DNA of 64,000 nucleotides from Candidatus Pacearchaeota archaeon (GTDB lineage Archaea; Nanobdellota; Nanobdellia; Pacearchaeales; GW2011-AR1). Below are positions 871-39,843 of the stretch, one piece after another. Each line of letters begins with the position of its first letter. The stretch's first letter is position 1. Under the pieces are notes generated by a model, which made no database searches, was not told where the DNA came from, and was given only the letters and a program-made list of their open reading frames with translations. The stretch is taken from assembly GCA_041651235.1 (NCBI GenBank), contig JBAZJQ010000002.1, forward strand, positions 3,434 through 67,433. Direction: 5' to 3'. Both the position numbers and the translations under genes were made by a program.

Positions 871-3699
871 ATGATAGCAAAAAAAGAAGTTGATTTCAGG
901 GATAAATATATTAAATGGTTTTCTGAATTAAGTAATAAAAATGTTGATATTGCTGGAGGCAAGGGAGCTAGTTTAGGGGAGATGTTTAATAATAAATTTC
1001 CAGTTCCTCCAGGATTTGTAGTGACTGCGCAATCTTTTGCCTACTTTTTAGAACATCATGGATTAGCTGATAAAATTAATAATATCATTCTTGGAATTGA
1101 TATGGAAGATACTGCAGAGCTAGATGAAAAAGCAAAAGAAATTAGAGAATTAATTTTGAAAACAGATATGCCAAGTGATTTGAAAACTGAAATTATTGAA
1201 GCATATAATATTTTAGGAACAGAAAAAATAGAAGGCAAAGGTGTTTCTTCTGATGCATTAACTATTTTAAGAAATGCGCAAGAACCAATTTTTGTTTCTG
1301 TTAGAAGCTCTGCAACTACTGAAGATTCAGCTGATGCGAGTTTTGCTGGACAGCAAGATAGTTTCCTTAATATTAAGGGAGGACATCAAGTTGTTGAGCA
1401 TGTAAAAAAATGTTTTGCAAGTTTGTATACTGCAAGGTCAATTTATTATAGAAAACAAAAAGGAATTCAGGAAGGACAATCTTTGCTTGCAGTTGTTGTT
1501 CAAAAGATGATTGATTCTGAAAAGTCTGGGATTATATTCTCTAGAAATCCAATGACAATGGAAGATGATATTGTTATTGAAGCTGTTTATGGATTAGGAA
1601 CTGGAATTGTTTCTGGATTAATAAAACCGGATAATTATGTAGTATCAAGAGATTTGAAGATAAAAAGCATGACTATTGTAGATAAATTAGTTGCAATTGT
1701 TAGAACTGGTTCTGGTTCAAATGAAAAAGTTAAATTAAGTGCAGAAAGAAGCAAGAGCCAAGTTTTATCTCATTCTCAGATATTAGAAGCTGCAAATCAG
1801 GCAATAAAATTAGAAGAACATTATGGAAAACCACAAGATATCGAATTTGCAGTTGAAGAAGAAAAAATTTATATTGTTCAATCAAGGCCGATAACTACTT
1901 TAAAAACAAATGTTAAAAAAACAGGAGAATTATCTGGAAATATTTTATTAAATGGATTAGGTGCAAGTCCTGGAATTGGTGTTGGAATTGTAAAGATAAT
2001 AAAGGGCATGGAGGATTTATCTAAGATAAAGAAAGGAGATGTTCTTGTTACTGAAATGACTGATCCAGATATGGTTGTAAGTATGCAGAAATCAACTGCA
2101 ATTGTTACTGATGAGGGTGGAATGACTTCGCATGCAGCAATAGTAAGTCGTGAAATGGGAATTCCTGCTATTGTTGGAACTGGAAATGCAACTAGTGTAT
2201 TAAAAGATGGAATGAAAGTTACTGTTGATGGAACTCATGGAAAGGTTTACGAAGGACAAGTTGCAGAAACAAGTGTTATTGAAATAGAACCAATTGTTGA
2301 AACTCATAAGATTAAATTAAAGTTAATTGTAGACTTACCTGAATTTGCTGAAAGAGCTGCTAAATCTGGTATTGATTCGGTGGGGTTATTAAGATTAGAA
2401 GGGATTATTGCAAGCTCAAATAAACATCCTTTATTGTATGAGAAAGAAAATACATTAGAAGATTATACTGAATTATTAAGAAATGGAATTGAAAAGATTT
2501 CCAGGCCATTTAAGTCTGTTTGGATTAGAAGCTCTGATGTGAGAACTGATGAGTTCAGTGGATTAAAGGGAAGTCCTGAAAGAGAAATTAATCCTATGTT
2601 AGGATTGCATGGAATTAGATTTAGTTTGAAGCATCCTAAAATATTTGAAGCTGAATTAAATGCAATTAAAAAAGTTGCTGAAGAGCATCCTAACAAAAAC
2701 TTTGGGGTTATGTTTCCACAAGTAATTTCAATTGAAGAAGTATTAGAGTCTAAGAAAATATTTAATGCAATTGCAAGTGAAAATATGGATTTTGGGGTTA
2801 TGGTTGAAACTCCTGCAGCTGTTCAGGTTATTGAGGACCTTGCAAAAGAAGTTAGTTTTATTAGTTTTGGGACAAATGATTTAACTCAGTTTACCCTTGC
2901 GGTTGATAGGGGGGATGATAATGTTCAGCATTTATATAATGAAATGCATCCTGCTGTTATAGCTCAGATTGAAAAAGTAATTAAAGCCTGCAGAGGAAAA
3001 GTTCAGACAAGTATTTGCGGACAAGCAGGAAGCAATCCAGAAATGGTTGAAAAACTTTTTAGATTTGGAATAGATTCTATTTCAGTTAATGCTGATGCTG
3101 CTAAAAGTATTTCTGAGTTAATCAAGAGCATGGAAGATAAAGGAATTAAACATGGAGCAGAAGGTTCATTAGCTAAAGCTAATGAAAAAACACAAAAGAT
3201 GGAAGTAGAGATGGAGAAGAAAAAATGGGGATTTGATATAACTTGTGATGAATGTGGAAAAATAGACAATGTTCCATTTAAGCCTAAAAAAGGCTGGCCT
3301 GTTTATTGCAAGGAGTGTTATAAAAACAAGAGAAGTAAAAAAAATAATCCTGAATTGCCAACTTTACCTGTTGAATCTCCTAATATAAAACAATATGAAG
3401 AAGACAATAAAAAGATTCAGAAACAATTATTAAATGAAAATATAGGTGCTATTGAGCCCATAAATAATCATAAGAGAATTAATGATATCGCAAATAATAT
3501 TATACAAGAAGTAGAACAAAAAAATAAAAAAGAAGCTGAAAAAGACAAAGAAAAAGATGATGATATTCTTATGGAGCCTGGAGATGATTTTAATTTAAGA
3601 GATAGTCTAGGAGTTTATAATCCTGATGAAGAAACAGGCAAAAGCCAGTATGATTATAGTTTTGAAGATGGGGAAGATGAGTATAGTGATGTGTTTTAG
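871..3699 (+). CDS. ppsA: phosphoenolpyruvate synthase (pyruvate, water dikinase) with a roughly 190-aa C-terminal extension
   Basis: N-terminal PEP/pyruvate-binding ATP-grasp region. Phosphohistidine swivel motif TDEGGMTSHAAIVSREMGIPAIVG. PEP-utilising TIM-barrel motifs SFGTNDLTQFTLAVDR and ICGQAG. The extra tail carries a CxxC...CxxC motif and K/E/D-rich low complexity. Confidence 0.85.
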   Translation: MIAKKEVDFRDKYIKWFSELSNKNVDIAGGKGASLGEMFNNKFPVPPGFVVTAQSFAYFLEHHGLADKINNIILGIDMEDTAELDEKAKEIRELILKTDMPSDLKTEIIEAYNILGTEKIEGKGVSSDALTILRNAQEPIFVSVRSSATTEDSADASFAGQQDSFLNIKGGHQVVEHVKKCFASLYTARSIYYRKQKGIQEGQSLLAVVVQKMIDSEKSGIIFSRNPMTMEDDIVIEAVYGLGTGIVSGLIKPDNYVVSRDLKIKSMTIVDKLVAIVRTGSGSNEKVKLSAERSKSQVLSHSQILEAANQAIKLEEHYGKPQDIEFAVEEEKIYIVQSRPITTLKTNVKKTGELSGNILLNGLGASPGIGVGIVKIIKGMEDLSKIKKGDVLVTEMTDPDMVVSMQKSTAIVTDEGGMTSHAAIVSREMGIPAIVGTGNATSVLKDGMKVTVDGTHGKVYEGQVAETSVIEIEPIVETHKIKLKLIVDLPEFAERAAKSGIDSVGLLRLEGIIASSNKHPLLYEKENTLEDYTELLRNGIEKISRPFKSVWIRSSDVRTDEFSGLKGSPEREINPMLGLHGIRFSLKHPKIFEAELNAIKKVAEEHPNKNFGVMFPQVISIEEVLESKKIFNAIASENMDFGVMVETPAAVQVIEDLAKEVSFISFGTNDLTQFTLAVDRGDDNVQHLYNEMHPAVIAQIEKVIKACRGKVQTSICGQAGSNPEMVEKLFRFGIDSISVNADAAKSISELIKSMEDKGIKHGAEGSLAKANEKTQKMEVEMEKKKWGFDITCDECGKIDNVPFKPKKGWPVYCKECYKNKRSKKNNPELPTLPVESPNIKQYEEDNKKIQKQLLNENIGAIEPINNHKRINDIANNIIQEVEQKNKKEAEKDKEKDDDILMEPGDDFNLRDSLGVYNPDEETGKSQYDYSFEDGEDEYSDVF

Positions 3700-11167: not shown

Positions 11168-11665
11168 TTACACTTTTTTCATAAAATCCATCATTGATTT
11201 TTTTTCAAATTTGATTATTTCTTCTGTATTTGCGTCAATTAAAATATGTAATATTGCTAGACTATCTAGCATGCAGGTTAAATTCCAAGTTTCTTTTCCT
11301 TCATGTTTTTGCAAAACAGCAATTATTTTCTGGAATTTATTTTGAATATTATAATCCAGGGCTGTTGTTTTTGCTAATTCAGGTATTTTATCTAAATCAA
11401 TTTTAATAGTTGTGTTTAGTTTTTGAAGAGGTGGTTGATTTGGAGAATCTATTAGTTTATCTTCTTGAAAAGTAATATCCTCATTTTCCAGAGAAAAAGT
11501 AAAGATCTTATGGTCTGTTTTATAATCTAGTGTTTGTTTTGAATCATTTCCTGTAAAATCCAATATAAAAAATCCTACAACAAGTTCCGCATCTGGATGT
11601 TCTGATTTAAATCTTTCGAATATCTTAGAAGATTCTATCTTTTTTAATAATTGAGTGAAGTTCAT
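11168..11665 (-). CDS. hypothetical protein translationally coupled to thrS
   Basis: 165 aa. Its start overlaps the thrS stop by 4 nt (ATGA). Confidence 0.5.
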   Translation of the reverse strand: MNFTQLLKKIESSKIFERFKSEHPDAELVVGFFILDFTGNDSKQTLDYKTDHKIFTFSLENEDITFQEDKLIDSPNQPPLQKLNTTIKIDLDKIPELAKTTALDYNIQNKFQKIIAVLQKHEGKETWNLTCMLDSLAILHILIDANTEEIIKFEKKSMMDFMKKV

Positions 11666-13350
11666 ATCTTCTCTTCAACTTCTTTTTTGATTTGTTTAAT
11701 AAATTCTTCTCTGTTTATTGTTGTTACTTTTCCTTGTTTTCTGACAGCTAAAGAATTAGATTTTTCTTCTTTATCACCAATAACGATGATGTAAGGAATT
11801 TTTTCCATTTCAGCTTGCTTGATTTTTCCTTGTAAAGGTTCTGAGGTTAAATCAATATCTGTTCTTATGTTTAAAGATTTTAATTCTTCTACTAGTTTCT
11901 CACATGCTTTATTATTTTTATCTGTGAAATTAATTACTCTACACTGTATTGGAGAGATCCATAATGGAAGTTTTCCTTTGTAATGTTCTAATAAAATTCC
12001 CATAAATCTTTCTAAACTTCCATAAATTACTCTGTGTAACATAACAGGTTGCTTCTTTTGATTTTTCTCATCAGTATATTCTAGTTCAAATCTTTCTGGC
12101 ATTGCAAAATCTAGTTGGATAGTTGCACACTGCCAGGTTCTGTTTAAAGAATCTTTAATATGAAAATCTATTTTAGGGCCATAAAAAGCACCATCTCCTT
12201 TATTTATTTTGAATTTCATTTTCTTTTTCTTTAAAACATCTTCTAAAGTTTTTTCTGCTTTGTCCCAAATTTTATCATCTCCAATCCTTTTTTCAGGACG
12301 TGTTGATAATTCTACATGATATTCAAAACCAAATAATTTGTAAAATTTATCTATTAAATCCATTATGTTTATTATTTCTTGCTCTAATTGTTTTTCTGTG
12401 CAGAAGATATGGGCATCATCTTGAGTAAATTGAATTACTCTGAATAATCCTGCTAAAACTCCTGAAAGTTCTTGTCTGTGAACAACTCCTAGTTCTCCAA
12501 CACGAAGAGGTAAGTTTTTGTAAGATTTTGGAGAGTTTTTATAAACCAGCATTCCTCCTGGGCAATTCATTGGTTTTACAATAAATGTTCTTTTTTCATA
12601 ATCTGATATAAAAACATTTTCTTTGTATTTCTCCCAGTGTCCTGAAATTAACCAGAGTTTTTTATCTAAAATTTGAGGGGTAGAAATTTCCTGGTAACCT
12701 GCTTTTTTATGTTCATGTCTCCAATATTCAATTAATTTGTTTCTTATAATTAATCCATTATTATGCCAGAAAACCATTCCAGGAGCAACTTCTGAAAATG
12801 AAAATAAATCCATTTGCTTACCTAAAATTCTATGGTCATTATCTTTTAGCTCTCTTGCATCTAGTTTAGATTTTGAGATTTCTCTAAGTAGTTGTTTAGG
12901 GTTTATATCTTCTTTAACTTCTCCATTATATTTTATTTCTCTTGATAATTCAGATAATGGATGTCCCTTGCATTTTAATTCAAATTCTTTGTAATATCCA
13001 AAAGGTGCTCTGCTTACTTGGAATTTTTGCTTAGTTAATTCTTTTTCAGCTTGCTCTAAAGTGCTTTGTGCAAAACTGGGGTTTGATAAACTGGGAGATA
13101 AATGAGCATAAGGATATAATACTATATTTTTAGAATTAACTTGTTTTGCAATATCTGCAATATTATCTACAAACTGTTTGATTATATTGGGGTTTTGTTC
13201 ATCAGTTTTTTCAACTGCTGTTAAAATTACTAATGGCTCTTTAATTTCTTCGCCTTTTTTTGCTTTTTCAGTTAATTCTTCAATGCTTTTTAGTGCTTTT
13301 TTTAATGGCTTGAATTTTATGAAGTCGCAATGCAATGATAGGAATTTCAT
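11662..13350 (-). CDS. thrS: threonyl-tRNA synthetase with the archaeal-type N-terminal editing domain
   Basis: The class II core is conserved (HRQELSG, FTQDDAH, and the GSLERF-type motif 3 region YGSLERFMGILLEH). The N-terminus MKFLSLHCDFIKFKP... resembles the DTD-like editing domain. I prefer the ATG at 13350 because a TATA-like TTTTATAAAT lies about 25-30 nt upstream. The track's longer start at 13395 adds a hydrophobic junk-like leader. Confidence 0.88.
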   Translation of the reverse strand: MKFLSLHCDFIKFKPLKKALKSIEELTEKAKKGEEIKEPLVILTAVEKTDEQNPNIIKQFVDNIADIAKQVNSKNIVLYPYAHLSPSLSNPSFAQSTLEQAEKELTKQKFQVSRAPFGYYKEFELKCKGHPLSELSREIKYNGEVKEDINPKQLLREISKSKLDARELKDNDHRILGKQMDLFSFSEVAPGMVFWHNNGLIIRNKLIEYWRHEHKKAGYQEISTPQILDKKLWLISGHWEKYKENVFISDYEKRTFIVKPMNCPGGMLVYKNSPKSYKNLPLRVGELGVVHRQELSGVLAGLFRVIQFTQDDAHIFCTEKQLEQEIINIMDLIDKFYKLFGFEYHVELSTRPEKRIGDDKIWDKAEKTLEDVLKKKKMKFKINKGDGAFYGPKIDFHIKDSLNRTWQCATIQLDFAMPERFELEYTDEKNQKKQPVMLHRVIYGSLERFMGILLEHYKGKLPLWISPIQCRVINFTDKNNKACEKLVEELKSLNIRTDIDLTSEPLQGKIKQAEMEKIPYIIVIGDKEEKSNSLAVRKQGKVTTINREEFIKQIKKEVEEKI

Positions 13351-13454
13351 AAAAACAATAAAGAAATGAGATTTATAAAAGTAACTCAAAAACACAATAT
13401 ATTTATAATTTCATTTTACTAATAAATAAAATGATAATCCAAGAAAATAATAAA

Positions 13455-13838
13455 TCACCAAACTTCTATTTTTATTCCTGTATTTTCAAAATGCTTTTTA
13501 TTTCGAGTAACTAAAATTAGATTATTCATTTTTGCAAAACAAGCTATCATCAAGTCTATATTCTCTGTAATTTTTCCAATTTTACTTAATTTTGCATATT
13601 CTTTTCCATATTCTATACAGATATTTTCATTAAATTCCAGCAAAGTAAATGTATCTGTAAATTCTTTTATTAATCTTACTTTGATTTCCGAGTCTGAAGA
13701 AAGATATGCTCCTCGAAATAACTCGCATAAAGTTAAGGGGGTAATGAATACTTCATTTGAGACATTATTAAATTTAGAAATCGTTTCTTTATCTCCTCTT
13801 AAATAGTTTACAATTATATTTGTGTCTAGGCAGTACAT
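13455..13838 (-). CDS. vapC: PIN-domain ribonuclease toxin VapC
   Basis: 127 aa. It has the MYCLDTNIIV N-terminal acidic motif and the distal D/E residues typical of PIN. Its start overlaps the antitoxin stop. Confidence 0.8.
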   Translation of the reverse strand: MYCLDTNIIVNYLRGDKETISKFNNVSNEVFITPLTLCELFRGAYLSSDSEIKVRLIKEFTDTFTLLEFNENICIEYGKEYAKLSKIGKITENIDLMIACFAKMNNLILVTRNKKHFENTGIKIEVW

Positions 13839-14065
13839 TAAAATTTCACCTCTCTCAACTTAAAATTTTTTCTGTCTTTTTCTATATTATCCATTATTTT
13901 TCCCCATTCTTCATCATTCTTAAAAATTCCTGCAAATTTGCTTATATCTCTTTTCTTTTTCTTGCATTCAATTAATTCTACAACTATCTCTGAAAATGAT
14001 TTATTATCTTTTATTGATTTCAATCTATCATAAGCATCATTGGATAATGAGATTACTTTAACCAT
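13838..14065 (-). CDS. vapB: VapB-type antitoxin (DUF217-like)
   Basis: 75 aa. MVKVISLSNDAYDRLKSIKDNKSFSEIVVELIE matches the archaeal ISxSDxxYxxLxxxKxxxSFSExIxxL antitoxin pattern. Confidence 0.7.
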   Translation of the reverse strand: MVKVISLSNDAYDRLKSIKDNKSFSEIVVELIECKKKKRDISKFAGIFKNDEEWGKIMDNIEKDRKNFKLREVKF

Positions 14066-14201
14066 ATAGGTATATGCATATGCACCTATATAAATCTTTT
14101 GTTATATCTCCAAATACTTGTCTTTTAGATATAGTCATCACTTTAAAATGACAATTATAGAAACATTTAAAAAGGGATAAAATATCATAAAATAGGATAA
14201 A

Positions 14202-14345
14202 ATGAAAACACAAATATCAATAACAATTGAAAGAGAAATGCTTGAAAAAGCTCAGGAGAAATTAAAAGAAGGCTTGTTTAGAAACCAGTCTCACTTGTTT
14301 GAATATTCATTAAAAAAGTTCTTGGAAGACGAGGAGGATAAATAA
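14202..14345 (+). CDS. ribbon-helix-helix (CopG-like) protein, below the ORF-track cutoff
   Basis: MKTQISITIEREMLEKAQEKLKEGLFRNQSHLFEYSLKKFLEDEEDK (47 aa). Stop at 14343-14345, and the next ATG is at 14347. It is a paralogue of 4837-4977 (shared ISITI..FRN.SH..EYSL.KFL). Confidence 0.6.
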   Translation: MKTQISITIEREMLEKAQEKLKEGLFRNQSHLFEYSLKKFLEDEEDK

Positions 14346-14346
14346 A

Positions 14347-14685
14347 ATGGAAACATTAGTAGAAACATTAAGAGACGAATTAACAGTAGAACAATGGAGT
14401 GAAGTAAATAGAAGAATGCATACTCCAGAGTATAGAACCCAAGTTAATTTTGTGGATTTAGATAATTATAATTATTCAGAAGTTCTTAATCAATGTATTC
14501 AGGATGTTTTAGCTGAAACAGCTGGAAAATGCAGATGGAGAAATGTAGCAAACAATGATACTGAAAAATGGCTTGATTCACAGCCTAATATTACATTAGC
14601 TCAGAATTCTTATTGCAATATTTGCTCGGGAAGTTATGAAAATGCTAAACAGATAAATTGCAAAAATTATGTGGAGAAAAAATAA
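14347..14685 (+). CDS. hypothetical protein (C-terminal Cys cluster)
   Basis: 112 aa, packed 1 nt after the RHH ORF. It contains ...CNICSGSYENAKQINC... Confidence 0.5.
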   Translation: METLVETLRDELTVEQWSEVNRRMHTPEYRTQVNFVDLDNYNYSEVLNQCIQDVLAETAGKCRWRNVANNDTEKWLDSQPNITLAQNSYCNICSGSYENAKQINCKNYVEKK

Positions 14686-14686
14686 A

Positions 14687-14914
14687 ATGAGAATACAAAC
14701 CCAAATACCTATATGTTACAATAAAGAAATAGCAAATGTAGATTTAATTGCATTGCAAAATGGAAAGTTTCTTTTATGGAATGATTCTCAAGAAAAGAAA
14801 GATGCGCATCCTAATTGGAGATATGTTATGTATAAATTAAATTCTGTTTGCCAGAAATGCCCCGGATATGATAATAAGTGTCCTTCATATATTACAAATG
14901 GAGAGTTAAAATGA
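14687..14914 (+). CDS. hypothetical small Cys-containing protein
   Basis: The ATG at 14687 lies 1 nt after the previous stop. MRIQTQIPICYNK...CQKCPGYDNKCPSY. Its stop overlaps the SLT ATG (ATGA). Confidence 0.5.
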   Translation: MRIQTQIPICYNKEIANVDLIALQNGKFLLWNDSQEKKDAHPNWRYVMYKLNSVCQKCPGYDNKCPSYITNGELK

Positions 14915-15630
14915 AATTTACTAATTATTTAACAAGAATTGGATTAGGAGTTGGATTGATTTTAGGTGGGGTTGGATTATTTAATGGAAATAGTTTAGAA
15001 GCTAAAGTTAATAAAACTGATAAAAAGGTTGTGAAATATGATGAATACAAATATGATTCATTAATTTTAAAAGAATCTCAAGAAACCTCACTAGATAAAT
15101 ATCTGATAAAGGGGCAAATAAAACAAGAATCTCGATTTAATCCTAATGCAAAATCTCCTGTTGGTGCAGTGGGATTATCTCAAATAATGCCAGATACAGC
15201 AAAAGAATTAGGATACAAACCAAATGAAATGTATGAACCTGGAAAAGCAATTGATGCTCAGACAAGATATATGAGGCAAATGTATGATTATAAAGAATTT
15301 GAAAAATATATTGGAGATGAAAAAACTAAACTTGCTTTAGCTTCTTATAATGCAGGTTATGGAAACATAAGACATGCAGTAAGAATAATTCAAAATGCAA
15401 GAAATGGAGAAAAGGAATATAAAATTACTAAAGGTTCTGGAAAAAAGAAAAAAGTAATCAGAGTTTTAAAAATAGAAAACTTAAAAGAATGTCCTGAAAA
15501 TTGGGATAATGGATTTTCAAAAGCATTAGAATTAGTTGCAGGAAAAAGAGCAGCTGAAACTCAAGATTATGTCAGCAAGGTAATAAGATACAGAGAAGAA
15601 TATTTGCTTGATGGCAAATCATTTAGATAA
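14911..15630 (+). CDS. secreted/membrane-anchored lytic transglycosylase (SLT domain, goose-lysozyme-like fold)
   Basis: N-terminal hydrophobic signal/anchor LTRIGLGVGLILGGVGLF. The catalytic-Glu motif IKQESRFNPNAKSPVGAVGLSQIMPDTA and a downstream ALASYNAGYGN are the classic family-1 SLT signatures. Confidence 0.8.
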   Translation: MKFTNYLTRIGLGVGLILGGVGLFNGNSLEAKVNKTDKKVVKYDEYKYDSLILKESQETSLDKYLIKGQIKQESRFNPNAKSPVGAVGLSQIMPDTAKELGYKPNEMYEPGKAIDAQTRYMRQMYDYKEFEKYIGDEKTKLALASYNAGYGNIRHAVRIIQNARNGEKEYKITKGSGKKKKVIRVLKIENLKECPENWDNGFSKALELVAGKRAAETQDYVSKVIRYREEYLLDGKSFR

Positions 15631-15648
15631 TTATTCTTATCTAAATAA

Positions 15649-16758
15649 TCACTTTAAATATTTATCAATATCTTTTTGAGATATTGATTTAAGTCTTTTT
15701 TGGTGTTCTATTAAAAATTTAGATATTTTATCAATAGCTATTTTTTTTAGTTCGCCTGTAAGCAATTCTCCTGATTTGTATCTGTTGTATATATTTTCTA
15801 ATTCTTTATCATCTTCTTCAAATAATCTTAAATATTGGAATGAAACATCCACATCTGGATTCCCGCCTTTTTTTCTGTGCTCTTCTAGTGTAGGCTGTCC
15901 ACCTGAAAATGCATATTTATTTATTTTATTTTGAATTTCTTTTGGAGAATCTGTCGGAGATATATAAGAAGTAGGATCAGATGCAGACATCTTTCCTCCT
16001 TTTAATCCTGGCAAAAAGATATTATATGTTGAAACTAGCTGTATAAAAGGAGGTTTTATTCTCTGAGAAATATCTCTTGCTAATCTTAAATGAGGGTCCT
16101 GATCAATTCCAACAGGAACAATAACAGGACAAGGCCCTTCAAATTCTTTTAATTGAGGATGAAGCATATCTGCTGTCTGTAATAAACCAGAAAGCATTTT
16201 TCCAGGACTTATTTCTCCATAAACTGCTTTGAATTCATTAAATGTAACATGTCTTGCTAATAAATTCTGCAATCGGTAATATGCATTTGATTTTTTTGAA
16301 TCTTTGCTTCTTTCTGACTGAAAATAAATTTCACAATTTTCTGGTTTTAATCCCAGAGCAATATAATTGGGAATATAATATTCTAATGCTATTTTTCTTG
16401 ATTCTTCTAAAGATTGTCCTCTTGCATTATATGCTTCTATATCTGCGACAGCAATATAAATTTTAGCTCCTAATTTTTGATAAAACACCATCTGCATAGC
16501 TACTAGCATATGCCCTAAATGAAATTTGCCTGTCGGCATTAAGCCAGTCATCATAACAAATTTCTTTTTGTTTTTAACAGCATCTAAAACTCTTTGGATA
16601 TCTCTGTGAGCAAAAATAAATCTTCTTCTAAATAAAATTTCTTTTTCAAATTCAGGAATATTTTTTAAAGGGGTTACTCCAAACTCCCTTATTAGTTTAT
16701 TATAATCTATTTTTCCAGATACTTCCCAGGGATTAATAACCTGTTTTTCTTTTGTCAT
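15649..16758 (-). CDS. trpS: tryptophanyl-tRNA synthetase (archaeal/eukaryotic type)
   Basis: Class I HIGH variant TGKFHLGH and KMSAS instead of KMSKS, as in eukaryote/archaeal TrpRS. The N-terminal INPWEV...IDYNKLIREFG pattern is also present. Confidence 0.85.
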   Translation of the reverse strand: MTKEKQVINPWEVSGKIDYNKLIREFGVTPLKNIPEFEKEILFRRRFIFAHRDIQRVLDAVKNKKKFVMMTGLMPTGKFHLGHMLVAMQMVFYQKLGAKIYIAVADIEAYNARGQSLEESRKIALEYYIPNYIALGLKPENCEIYFQSERSKDSKKSNAYYRLQNLLARHVTFNEFKAVYGEISPGKMLSGLLQTADMLHPQLKEFEGPCPVIVPVGIDQDPHLRLARDISQRIKPPFIQLVSTYNIFLPGLKGGKMSASDPTSYISPTDSPKEIQNKINKYAFSGGQPTLEEHRKKGGNPDVDVSFQYLRLFEEDDKELENIYNRYKSGELLTGELKKIAIDKISKFLIEHQKRLKSISQKDIDKYLK

Positions 16759-17118: not shown

Positions 17119-19224
17119 ATGATGAAAAAAGAGATTGTCTTATTTATGATTGGAATATGTTTTTTATTGCCAGTTTTATCTGCAGGAGTTTATTTTTCTC
17201 AATTAAATGAAGTTTATAATCTCGGAGATACAATAAAAACAAGTGTGGAAGTTAGTCCATTAGAATTTGGCCCCCTTAAAGTTCAGTTAATTTGTGCGGG
17301 AAAATCAGTTCTTGCATTCTATGGAAATCCAAGTGCAAGTGAAGAAATTGAACTTCCTTTAAATTATCTATTTTTAGAAGATATTAAGGGCGGAGATTGT
17401 TATTTTTCAGCAGATTACAATAAACTAGAGTATCAAAGCAGGACATTTAAAATTTCAAATGTATTAAATATATTTTTAGATAAAAATAATTATGTTGTTA
17501 AACCTGGAGAAAATATAACTGTAAGTGGAACAGCAAAAAGAATAAATGGGGTTGGTATTAATGGAGATGTTGAAATAACTATTCCTTTATTGAGTTTAGC
17601 TGAAAATAATCTAGTGATCAATGATACGAGTACTAATGAAACAGAGACAAATGAAAGTGATATTGTAATCGAATCAAATACAGGAACTTTTCATGCAAAT
17701 GTTGTTGATGGTGTTTTTTCAAGGAATTTTGATTTGCCTTCTGATACTGCTGCAGGCAATTATAGAATAGATGTTAATGCATTTGAAATGATTGATGATC
17801 AGAAAACAAGTGAGGGTTTAGCTATGGCAGATTTAGAAGTATTGCAGATTTTAAAGGGAATTGATCTAGCAATTAATCTGAATAATATAAATCCTGGGCA
17901 AGTTTTTGATTTTAAGCCAAGTTTATTAGACCAAACAGGAACTATAATCTCTGATGAAGTCTCGATATTAATAACTAATGAAGAGCAGGAGAGAATTTAT
18001 GAGAAAATATATACTTCTGGTGAAACAGCAGGATATGATATCCCCACAAATTTCAGTTCTGGATATTATACAATAAAAGCATCTAGTGGAGAATTTGAAA
18101 CCTCAAAAACATTTTTTGTTAATGAAAAAACTATGCTTTCATTTGAGATAGTTAATGATACTTTAATTGTTACTAATATAGGAAATATCCCTTATAAAAA
18201 AGATTTTGAAATTGAATTAAATGGCAAGCCATTTGTTAGAAGTTTGAATTTAGATTTAGGAGAAATTCAGAAATTTAAATTAACTGGAGATGGGTTATAT
18301 GATGTAATAGTTAGTGATGGAGAAAATGAGATTATGCAAAATGGTGTTGCTTTAACAGGTAATTCAGTTAATGTTAAGGCAATTGGAGATGGTTCCGTGA
18401 TATTTAGCAGCCCGGTTGTGTGGATATTTTTAATTATAGTTTTGGGTGCAGGAATATTATTTTTATTTAGAAATATGCTAAAAAAGAAATCTTTTGCTTA
18501 TCCTTTTAGCAGAAAAAAGAAGATTATGGAGATAAAAGGTAATCCTGTTGTTAAAGAAGCTATAGCTAAACATGAAGAAGGAGCTATTGCTCCAAGATCC
18601 TTAGTTGCTCCAAAAAAAGCAGAACATGTTTTGGTTTTAACAGGTCCAAAAAATACTGTTAGTATGGTTGCATTAAAAGTTAAGAATGAGTTGTCTAAAG
18701 AATCTAAAATTAATTTAGGGTTAATAATTGAAAAAATAAAGGGAAATAAAGGAGTTGTTTATGAATCAAGGGATTATTACTTTATTATTTTTAGTCCTTT
18801 AATGACTAGAGTCAATAAAAATGAAGCTCATGCAGCAAAAACAGCAGAATTACTTGAGATATTATTAAAGAAATACAATAGAAAGTTTAAACACAGAATA
18901 GAATTTGGTATTGCAGTTGGAAGTGGAGAAATAATAAATAAAATTGAGGACCAAACTTTGAAGTTTACTCCTTTAGGCAGTTTCTTAGTATCTTTAAAAA
19001 AAGTTGCAGAGGCTTCTAAAGAAAAGGTTCTTATAACAAAAGAAGCTCATGAAAAATCAGGTGGAGAAATTAAAGGAAATAAAATAAGTGTTAACGGGAT
19101 AGATGCTTATGAATTAAAGAATGTTGTTGACTCTGAAGCAAATCAAAAATTCTTACAAAGTTTTATGGAAAGAATGAATAAAGAAGATAATAAAAATCCT
19201 AAGTTTAATTCTCACCAAAGATAA
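17119..19224 (+). CDS. receptor-like membrane protein: signal peptide, Ig-like/beta-rich ectodomain, one TM, and a cytoplasmic degenerate class III cyclase-homology-like domain
   Basis: Signal sequence FMIGICFLLPVLSA and TM segment VVWIFLIIVLGAGILFLF. The cytoplasmic part follows the cyclase-homology layout (IEFGIAVGSGEII..., KFTPLGSFLVSLKKVAEAS, KVLITKEAHEK, ...AYELKNV). The canonical metal-binding Asp positions are not evident. Confidence 0.55.
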   Translation: MMKKEIVLFMIGICFLLPVLSAGVYFSQLNEVYNLGDTIKTSVEVSPLEFGPLKVQLICAGKSVLAFYGNPSASEEIELPLNYLFLEDIKGGDCYFSADYNKLEYQSRTFKISNVLNIFLDKNNYVVKPGENITVSGTAKRINGVGINGDVEITIPLLSLAENNLVINDTSTNETETNESDIVIESNTGTFHANVVDGVFSRNFDLPSDTAAGNYRIDVNAFEMIDDQKTSEGLAMADLEVLQILKGIDLAINLNNINPGQVFDFKPSLLDQTGTIISDEVSILITNEEQERIYEKIYTSGETAGYDIPTNFSSGYYTIKASSGEFETSKTFFVNEKTMLSFEIVNDTLIVTNIGNIPYKKDFEIELNGKPFVRSLNLDLGEIQKFKLTGDGLYDVIVSDGENEIMQNGVALTGNSVNVKAIGDGSVIFSSPVVWIFLIIVLGAGILFLFRNMLKKKSFAYPFSRKKKIMEIKGNPVVKEAIAKHEEGAIAPRSLVAPKKAEHVLVLTGPKNTVSMVALKVKNELSKESKINLGLIIEKIKGNKGVVYESRDYYFIIFSPLMTRVNKNEAHAAKTAELLEILLKKYNRKFKHRIEFGIAVGSGEIINKIEDQTLKFTPLGSFLVSLKKVAEASKEKVLITKEAHEKSGGEIKGNKISVNGIDAYELKNVVDSEANQKFLQSFMERMNKEDNKNPKFNSHQR

Positions 19225-39787: not shown

Positions 39788-39843
39788 ACATTTTTAAACT
39801 AAATTCTTTTAGTGATTTTATCAGTTTTAATTAACTGAGCTAT

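Follow-up and report, generated by a model that had tools for sequence, protein, structure and literature searches.

A 64,000-nucleotide stretch of a Candidatus Pacearchaeota archaeon genome (contig JBAZJQ010000002.1 of assembly GCA_041651235.1, positions 3,434 to 67,433), referred to here as the window, encodes at 14911-15630 on the + strand a 239-amino-acid (aa) protein that is, judging by its motifs and its N-terminus, a genuine family-1 lytic transglycosylase (SLT/GH23) of the exported kind. The gene occupies a slot upstream of thrS that in about 40% of the related loci scored holds a recognised muralytic gene of one kind or another. In the explanation that we favour, this DPANN archaeon, which itself makes no murein as far as is known, would export the SLT or anchor it on the cell surface through the N-terminal signal; outside the cell Glu73 would serve as the acid/base that cleaves the N-acetylmuramic acid–beta-1,4–N-acetylglucosamine (MurNAc-beta-1,4-GlcNAc) bonds of bacterial peptidoglycan, either breaching the wall of a bacterial host or prey or releasing wall fragments. 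The slot, divergent from thrS and usually lying in the thrS-trpS interval, would be filled, depending on the species, by an SLT, a SleB-like Hydrolase_2 enzyme, a GH24 lysozyme or an Amidase_3 enzyme, and in this strain it would also have acquired a vapBC pair and a trio of small genes with cytoplasmic products, which most likely share a transcript with the SLT gene. Taken as a whole (a functional exported SLT directed against bacterial murein, the muralytic slot and the co-transcribed small genes), this explanation appears to us a likely one.

The assignment of the enzyme is supported by several comparisons. The Pfam SLT profile (PF01464) matches residues 62-170 (E=1.3e-22) and scores 80 bits where 21.3 are required, several NCBIfam models for lytic transglycosylases match over the domain only, and the phage transglycosylase families phrog_669 (E=1.6e-32) and phrog_2013 match residues 46-233, nearly the whole mature part of the protein. 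The Pfam and PHROGs matches, together with the PDB alignment and an alignment of 15 sequences, place the SLT domain at residues ~47-233 (15049-15609, + strand). All four family-1 motifs are intact (E73-S74, G88-x-x-Q91, Y146-N147-x-G149 and Y220); among 15 archaeal homologs E73, S74, G88, Q91, Y146, N147 and G149 are invariant and P110 and Y220 nearly so. The codons of the catalytic Glu73-Ser74 pair, GAA TCT, lie at 15127-15132 (+) within the segment encoding IKQESRFNP; the IKQESRF stretch aligns with IRQESRF of Neisseria LtgA and with the E-S pair of E. coli Slt70, and motif IV (AETQDYVSKV) aligns with SETRDYVKKV in these solved structures. An insertion of ~45 aa between motifs III and IV is specific to the subfamily formed by the window SLT and those of two related loci, L001 and L003. 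The signal/anchor occupies residues 1-31 (14911-15003, +) and comprises an n-region with K/R residues, a 15-aa hydrophobic core IGLGVGLILGGVGLF (mean Kyte-Doolittle value 2.2) and then SLEA|K; an equivalent hydrophobic segment is present at the N-terminus of every SLT homolog, that of P0002 bearing a twin-arginine motif, RREFLK. An earlier note on this DNA, written by a model from the letters alone, had named the protein a secreted family-1 SLT on the strength of its signal/anchor and its family-1 motifs, and both the name and the catalytic Glu context have withstood the profile and structure alignments. Close relatives are few: among 5.8 billion clusters only P0002 (53% identity) and P0003 (48%) were retrieved, the nearest non-archaeal matches are bacterial proteins of ~185 aa (e.g., from Aliarcobacter) with 41-45% identity over the domain, and a comparison with viral contigs returned no match.

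The host is clearly a DPANN archaeon of the Pacearchaeota/Woesearchaeota type and not a bacterial contaminant. The window ThrRS shares 64-79% identity with its counterparts in 80 reference metagenome-assembled genomes named Pacearchaeota, Woesearchaeota or Nanoarchaeota, its gene carries the archaea-specific editing domain PF08915, and the window also encodes RNA polymerase subunits of the Rpb2 and Rpb1 types (RpoB/RpoA'), aEF-2 and aEF-1alpha. The GC content is 0.25-0.35 throughout (0.26-0.29 across the region), with no break at the gene run. An independent 2965-bp Logan contig from a landfill metagenome run spans 12967-15931 with 0 mismatches and a uniform depth of ~70x, and since it matches without a mismatch, the junctions between thrS, vapBC, the small genes, the SLT gene and trpS are not an assembly artefact. 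The linkage to archaeal thrS and trpS, which the note had held against contamination, is thereby upheld. When expression data were sought for the locus, the sequence was found to be present in two DNA runs only, both of them landfill metagenomes. In one run (X1) the depth is 2-3-fold higher at 12947-13093 and 15887-16033, within conserved stretches of the two synthetase genes, thrS and trpS, and these are also the places where many short contigs of 85-95% likeness break off; the landfill sample therefore harbours a number of related Pacearchaeota strains whose slots differ in content. Short joints (e.g., 13005 to 15866) are short related-strain contigs that match the conserved aminoacyl-tRNA synthetase segments only, and they were not used.

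The position of the SLT gene was compared across a panel of 80 reference thrS neighbourhoods, slot contents being scored, by means of profiles for four families (SLT, Hydrolase_2, GH24 lysozyme and Amidase_3), in those 71 loci whose sequence extends 700 bp or more beyond thrS on its upstream side. In about half of the neighbourhoods trpS shares the strand of thrS and is located upstream of it, at an interval of 10 bp to 5.9 kb, and it adjoins thrS in 42 of 83 related loci. In 12 reference loci a profile search found SLT-domain open reading frames (ORFs) that adjoin the upstream side of thrS and are encoded on the other strand. Among the 71 scored slots, 16 contain Hydrolase_2, 11 contain an SLT (one of them together with Amidase_3), and Amidase_3 alone and GH24 lysozyme occur once each, so that any recognised muralytic gene is present in 29 (~40%); an uncharacterised anchored family (loci L039 and L056) takes the same place in two loci. 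The same four profiles gave 0 muralytic matches in the other 783 kb of these loci. The largest cluster of other slot proteins is Hydrolase_2 of the SleB/CwlJ type (L016, E=2.6e-15), the locus with the closest ThrRS relative (L017, 79%) has a phage-type GH24 lysozyme in its slot (Phage_lysozyme E=1.7e-40), and in L031 an SLT is followed by Amidase_3 (E=1.4e-36). Export-type hydrophobic segments were detected by hydropathy at the N-termini of all 30 slot lysins tested, and the muralytic cargo is always encoded on the strand opposite to the aminoacyl-tRNA synthetase genes. Other slots hold alpha/beta hydrolase, peroxiredoxin, DapB, VWA and AAA proteins.

The SLTs found in the slot form at least three subfamilies. 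The window type shares 43-48% identity (~90 bits) with bacterial SLTs, which were picked as the best matches to the window protein, versus 28-33% (39-56 bits) with the other Pacearchaeota slot SLTs. Because the subfamilies resemble bacterial SLTs more than they resemble one another, the simplest reading of these alignments would be a repeated replacement in situ of one exported murein-lytic enzyme by another. The four unrelated families that alternate at this site have only their substrate in common, which argues, indirectly but fairly strongly, that the substrate is murein and that peptidoglycan lysis itself is the trait under selection. The note had already seen the bacterial cell wall as the plausible target; it is still the best reading, and the alternation of four families at one site strengthens it.

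Several observations on the slot deserve to be recorded in their own right. The proteins of L039 (7079-7747, -) and L056 (7275-7964, -) form an N-terminally anchored family of ~225 aa which stands between trpS and thrS in exactly the position and strand of a lysin; no Pfam match was found for the family, and a PDB search with the L039 protein returned nothing meaningful. We consider it a candidate fifth, as yet uncharacterised, wall-lytic family. Locus L016 (JAFCCB010000031.1) is titled Candidatus Dojkabacteria bacterium, a member of the candidate phyla radiation, yet it encodes an archaeal-type ThrRS 76% identical to that of the window and has trpS along with Hydrolase_2 in the slot; this contig is probably mis-binned. 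In L014 (6547-7449, -) and L009 (5997-7013, -) the slot holds an anchored alpha/beta-hydrolase resembling esterases and lipases. A bactericidal alpha/beta-hydrolase from an archaeon has been described in a 2026 preprint (10.64898/2026.06.10.730825), and by analogy the slot protein of these two loci may be another antibacterial cargo. Our literature search found no description of a thrS-anchored slot or of Hydrolase_2 or lysozyme in Pacearchaeota, which is not proof that none exists; likewise, we found no mention of the slot, of the four-family alternation or of the Cys4 family described below in the published accounts of DPANN SLTs, which is weak evidence of novelty.

The small genes upstream of the SLT have a distribution of their own. 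The relatives P0002 and P0003 reside in loci L001, with the order thrS(-), SLT(+) ... trpS(-), and L003, with the order thrS(-), SLT(+), and the closest SLT loci (L001-L003) lack vapBC as well as the genes for the 47-aa, 112-aa and 75-aa proteins. A tblastn search with the three small proteins against the 83 related thrS loci gave no match, and 11 further slot SLTs stand without these genes, alone or beside other secreted proteins. A repeat scan found no direct repeats flanking the region, only AT-rich chance repeats, no recombinase ORF is present between thrS and trpS, the sole tRNA of the window is at 39843, and no relatives of the locus were found among viral contigs searched with the SLT protein and with a degenerate DNA pattern of the Cys domain. 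Since synteny is kept and repeats, recombinase and viral relatives are lacking, the mobile module suggested earlier, for which a check of composition and flanking repeats had been proposed, is unsupported; from these comparisons the SLT is to be regarded as a positionally stable chromosomal gene and the upstream small genes as a strain- or lineage-specific addition. The description of the locus as a four-gene cassette must be divided accordingly: the gene run is real, whereas the synteny search showed the closest SLT orthologs to lack the small genes. For the same reason there is no cognate immunity gene conserved beside the enzyme, as would be expected of an effector-immunity pair. The neighbours of the SLT are thrS, vapBC, trpS and the gene of a 701-aa surface protein, and no secretion, pilus or flagellum genes adjoin it or occur among the ORFs scanned, which were a part of those in the window. 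Just downstream of the L001 SLT there is a gene (L001:3732-4157, +) for a 141-aa anchored protein homologous to the N-terminal extension of the 375-aa SLT of L003 (L003:513-1640, +; residues ~20-125, z=10), so that on this alignment the SLT-associated domain is split in one locus and fused in the other by fusion or fission.

The gene run itself consists of four + strand ORFs between vapB and trpS, at 14202-15630, and the coordinates that the note had given for a tightly packed run next to vapBC agree with ours. The gene of the 47-aa protein (14202-14345), delimited by its ORF and frame support, is the first; after a gap of 1 nt comes that of the 112-aa protein (p112, 14347-14685) and, after another such gap, that of the 75-aa Cys protein (p75, 14687-14914, ATG at 14687), for which a longer reading of 81 aa, from 14669, is likewise open. 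The ATG of the SLT gene at 14911 lies in an ATGA overlap with the p75 gene. Shine-Dalgarno-like motifs (GGAGG/GGAGA) precede the starts of the p112, p75 and SLT genes. In a three-periodic Markov model trained on 21 long genes of the window, the annotated frame of each small ORF ranks first of six, with 0.079, 0.125 and 0.011 nats/codon vs ~-0.5 off-frame, and these scores are close to those of the two vapBC genes. The + strand of 14066-15630 is free of T-runs of five nucleotides or longer. On account of the spacing, the Shine-Dalgarno-like motifs, the frame scores and the missing T-runs, the four ORFs look like real, translationally coupled genes, and co-transcription appears probable. The promoter would be located in the divergent intergenic region between vapB and the 47-aa gene (14066-14201, unstranded), in which the sequence and the repeat scan reveal a TATA-like box TTTAAAAA (14166-14173) ~30 nt ahead of the ATG of the 47-aa gene and two tandem 16-mers, TAAAAAGGGATAAAAT (14168-14183) and TAAAATAGGATAAAAT (14188-14203), which are 20 nt apart and overlap both the box and this ATG. 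A palindrome, TATAGGTATATGCATATGCACCTATA, is found at the vapB start (14064-14095). The palindrome and the 16-mers are possible candidate operators for VapB and for the 47-aa protein.

Of the small proteins, p112 is the most informative. Its N-terminal half is helical, and its C-terminal part (residues ~57-110) is a Cys4 domain with the pattern C62-x27-C90-x2-C93-x11-C105, probably metal-binding. In a word-indexed set of 5.8 billion proteins p112 and p75 retrieved only themselves, while an exhaustive HMMER search through 1.84 billion representatives brought up just two relatives of p112, P0092 (62 aa) and P0093 (61 aa), each ~44% identical to residues 57-110 and with all four Cys invariant. 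P0092 (L084) is encoded 1 nt downstream of the gene for a membrane-anchored 296-aa protein in an archaeal locus that is not a thrS slot; an archaeal SLT profile identifies this protein as an SLT (E=1.4e-17), Pfam alone giving E=0.028. P0093 (L085) does lie in a thrS/trpS slot, the products of thrS, trpS and the downstream 701-aa gene being 46%, 37% and 41% identical to those of the window, within a run of small + strand genes closed by the gene of an anchored LysM+Hydrolase_2 protein. All three known members of the Cys4 family are thus encoded next to or near an exported wall-lytic enzyme, in loci that differ in enzyme family, in gene order and, once, in genomic site. On the evidence of this gene neighbourhood we treat p112 as a candidate partner of wall-lytic genes, with an accessory or a regulatory role. 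The protein is collinear with a 63-aa protein of L085 followed by P0093, and we suggest that it may be a fusion of the two, the N-half being weakly supported (z=3.2). The ThrRS of L085 (12-1235, -) is only 407 aa long and has no N-terminal editing domain; beside its gene is that of a 148-aa zinc-ribbon-like protein (1270-1716, -), and an AlaE-type L-alanine exporter homolog (2411-2893, +, E=3.7e-31) lies within the run of genes that includes the lysin. When metagenomes were scanned with the alignment of the Cys domain, nothing confirmable was returned. A specific degenerate DNA pattern of this domain picked one locus, L086, which was rejected as a chance out-of-frame match in an oxidoreductase gene, and the pattern had no match in viral contigs.

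The remaining two proteins give fewer clues. The cysteines of p75 follow the pattern C10 ... C-x2-C-x6-C, and no homologs besides itself were found. Its local alignment with the C-half of p112 has z=5.5, a score reached by 2 of 2000 shuffles, and the corresponding hidden Markov model comparison is not significant (E=0.98); possibly, p75 represents a second Cys domain copy that has diverged. The 47-aa protein has a basic/acidic, beta-alpha-alpha-like pattern (QISITIE - EMLEKAQEKLKEG - RNQS - HLFEYSLKKFLE), which is ribbon-helix-helix (RHH)-like by eye only. Nothing credible was found for the three small proteins in Pfam (E<=10), NCBIfam, PHROGs or PADLOC, and in this respect the partner genes are indeed undescribed, as the note had stated. 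None of the three has a hydrophobic or export segment by hydropathy and they would therefore be cytoplasmic. This makes the immunity role formerly offered for them unlikely, the more so since a host devoid of murein needs no protection against a muramidase; the idea of partner genes survives in another form, through the association of the Cys4 domain with lytic genes. A metal-binding regulator or accessory factor would be the most economical role for the Cys proteins, which is only a guess, and the 47-aa protein could be a small DNA-binding regulator.

A bolder version of our explanation would hold that Pacearchaeota possess a dedicated murein-lysin site, refilled repeatedly by non-homologous enzymes (counting three SLT subfamilies, SleB-like Hydrolase_2, GH24 lysozyme, Amidase_3 and the L039/L056 family), with the Cys4 family as a specific regulator or accessory of the lysins; we regard it as doubtful. 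A number of points weigh against the explanation in one or the other form. Small genes of this kind are absent beside most slot SLTs. The association of Cys4 with lysins amounts to three occurrences which may not be independent, and in one of them (L085) the Hydrolase_2 and LysM matches (E=5e-5 and 2e-4) are below the Pfam gathering scores, this protein having been grouped with the slot Hydrolase_2 family when the profile of that cluster was built. The AlphaFold2 models of p112 (pLDDT 57, from a 3-sequence alignment) and p75 (pLDDT 48, from a single sequence) are too poor to use. The RHH label that the note had attached to the 47-aa protein is unverified, with no RHH match in Pfam (E<=10), NCBIfam, PHROGs, PADLOC or PDB sequences (E<=10). 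Finally, the analysis covered 64 kb of the genome, so that an endogenous murein-like polymer is formally possible.

The distribution of the small genes also admits of a different interpretation, according to which only the SLT matters. In this view the variable slot would have received the 47-aa, 112-aa and 75-aa genes along with vapBC as cargo that has nothing to do with the enzyme, toxin-antitoxin-like genes or element remnants whose proximity to the SLT is accidental. We lean against this interpretation while granting it a considerable chance. The small genes are absent from L001-L003 and from all other slot SLTs, the slots of other species accommodate the miscellaneous genes listed above, vapBC directly adjoins the small genes, and their coding scores are atypical in the same way as those of vapBC. 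On the other hand, accidental proximity does not readily account for a Cys4 protein near an exported lytic enzyme in three cases of three, including L084 outside the thrS slot and L085 with a different enzyme family, or for the 1-nt gaps, the ATGA overlap and the absence of a terminator-like T-run ahead of the SLT. As for the role of the enzyme, it might digest free peptidoglycan debris, such as that in landfill leachate, to feed a biosynthesis-poor archaeon with no specific host or prey. The single-domain build, without a cell-wall-binding or adhesin domain, the AlaE-type alanine exporter in the L085 lysin cluster and the pairing of Amidase_3 with SLT in L031, which would suit a stepwise degradation, are all in line with such scavenging; we saw no genes for uptake or catabolism of anhydro-muropeptides beside the SLT, however, and the literature favours interaction with a host or prey (PMC8204110, PMC9723730). 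Sequence data do not separate scavenging from the explanation that we prefer, and we consider it unlikely.

GH23 includes chitinases, and the SLT could in principle act on the archaeon's own envelope or on a non-murein glycan such as a chitin-like GlcNAc polymer, for example by making space for a surface machine in the manner of VirB1 or IagB. Its size and single-domain build do resemble those of the specialised bacterial SLTs of ~185 aa that are its nearest non-archaeal matches. Still, no secretion, pilus or flagellum genes adjoin it, the alternation in the slot of a MurNAc-L-Ala amidase, a SleB-type hydrolase and a GH24 lysozyme points to murein specifically, and murein synthesis is not reported for the lineage (PMC8204110), all of which makes this possibility very improbable. 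The strong phage lysin matches (phrog_669, E=1.6e-32) and the bacterial origin of the nearest non-archaeal relatives could also suggest an artefact, in which a piece of bacterial or phage DNA had been wrongly joined to an archaeal contig, or else a prophage endolysin. This is effectively refuted by the independent contig, which runs from thrS through the slot to trpS with zero mismatches and uniform depth, by the lack of a composition break and of viral contig relatives, and by the same synteny in many other archaeal genomes.

The genes that frame the slot are as follows. The left anchor, thrS (11662-13395, -), is recognised by PF08915, tRNA-synt_2b and HGTP_anticodon and by TIGR00418 (E=3e-174); its ORF opens at a GTG at 13395, while the homologs begin 16 codons downstream (MKFLSLHCD in the window, MKxLSLHCD in general), so that the true start is probably the ATG at 13347, which widens the gap between thrS and vapC. 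The right anchor, trpS (15649-16758, -), is matched by tRNA-synt_1b (E=6.9e-43) and by the NCBIfam trpS model. The genes vapC (13455-13838, -; Pfam PIN E=1.3e-14, NCBIfam VapC) and vapB (13838-14065, -; VAPB_antitox E=2.7e-15) overlap by 1 nt at 13838 and have the arrangement of a type II toxin-antitoxin system, a PIN toxin preceded by an overlapping VapB antitoxin gene. None of the 83 related loci contains a vapBC homolog, and the pair is window-specific slot cargo. Beyond trpS a 701-aa signal-bearing protein with a sub-threshold match to MG2 (macroglobulin-like) is encoded at 17119-19224 (+); it stands beside trpS in 43 of 83 related loci and is probably a surface protein of the lineage. At 871-3699 (+) there is a protein of the pyruvate phosphate dikinase/PEP synthase type with a C-terminal treble-clef zinc finger (PF23477, E=1e-13).

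The question of which hosts the Pacearchaeota and Woesearchaeota have and how they live gives the locus its wider interest; to our knowledge, no member of these groups has been cultivated. From this point of view the window SLT is useful as a small, easily expressed enzyme with which the cutting and killing of bacteria by a DPANN SLT can be tested directly, and the presence of an exported muralytic enzyme at one thrS-side locus in ~40% of related species provides population-level evidence for selection on murein lysis and a marker for comparative studies. The Cys4 family would be a candidate first accessory factor for archaeal lysins, on thin evidence. Should both the refilled site and the Cys4 regulator prove true, attacking or tapping bacteria would belong to the core traits of a major DPANN lineage and would have been selected for over a long time, and the slot with its cargo would be a simple genomic marker predicting which species depend on bacteria.

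Peptidoglycan hydrolases in archaea, to which the earlier note had referred, are no novelty in themselves: the SLT is indeed present here, and enzymes of this sort have already been published (PMC8204110, PMC9723730, PMC12352652). Castelle et al. (2021, PMC8204110) described large extracellular murein-transglycosylase proteins of DPANN archaea (fam00969, up to ~3000 aa), proposed that they bind and degrade bacterial walls, and cited Rinke 2013 and Castelle 2015 as earlier sightings; Vigneron et al. (2022, PMC9723730) found GH23 genes in Woesearchaeota and argued for predation on bacteria; and Strock et al. (2025, PMC12352652) reported peptidoglycan hydrolases in ~5% of archaeal genomes, prominently in Nanoarchaeota, and showed such enzymes to kill bacteria. 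An archaeal SLT aimed at bacterial murein is therefore already published for this lineage, and the window SLT is a new, small member. It agrees with the DPANN murein transglycosylases (PMC8204110, PMC9723730) in lineage, catalytic domain, extracellular site and proposed peptidoglycan target, and the uses proposed for them (attachment, predation or episymbiosis) are common to our reading of the window SLT. In contrast to the large multi-domain fam00969 proteins (PMC8204110), it has 239 aa and a single domain behind its signal. With the enzymes surveyed by Strock et al. (PMC12352652) it shares the concept of secreted archaeal enzymes of bacterial or phage ancestry turned against bacterial walls, although that survey deals with modular hydrolases combining a catalytic and a binding domain, and SLT does not figure in its main text.

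Among bacterial enzymes, Slt70, LtgA, MltC/E and the stand-alone SLTs of ~185 aa have the four motifs, including the catalytic Glu-Ser, in common with the window SLT. It differs from these enzymes in its host, an archaeon without known murein, and in the insertion of ~45 aa between motifs III and IV, and it lacks the superhelical U and L domains of Slt70. The linkage to machine genes that marks the specialised transglycosylases of the VirB1, IagB and FlgJ types was not seen for the window SLT among the ORFs scanned. Virion-associated and endolysin transglycosylases of phages (phrog_669, phrog_2013, phrog_342) provide the best profile matches and cover nearly the whole mature protein; unlike them, the window SLT has no phage context, is chromosomal and conserved in position, and carries a secretion signal instead of having a holin partner. 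The slot as a whole resembles hotspot loci such as defence islands and effector or polymorphic-toxin loci in its conserved flanks and swapped cargo, in the non-homologous enzymes directed at one target and in the toxin-antitoxin pair, but it differs from them in having no recombinase, repeats or immunity gene and in the dominance of one functional class, the muralytic enzymes.

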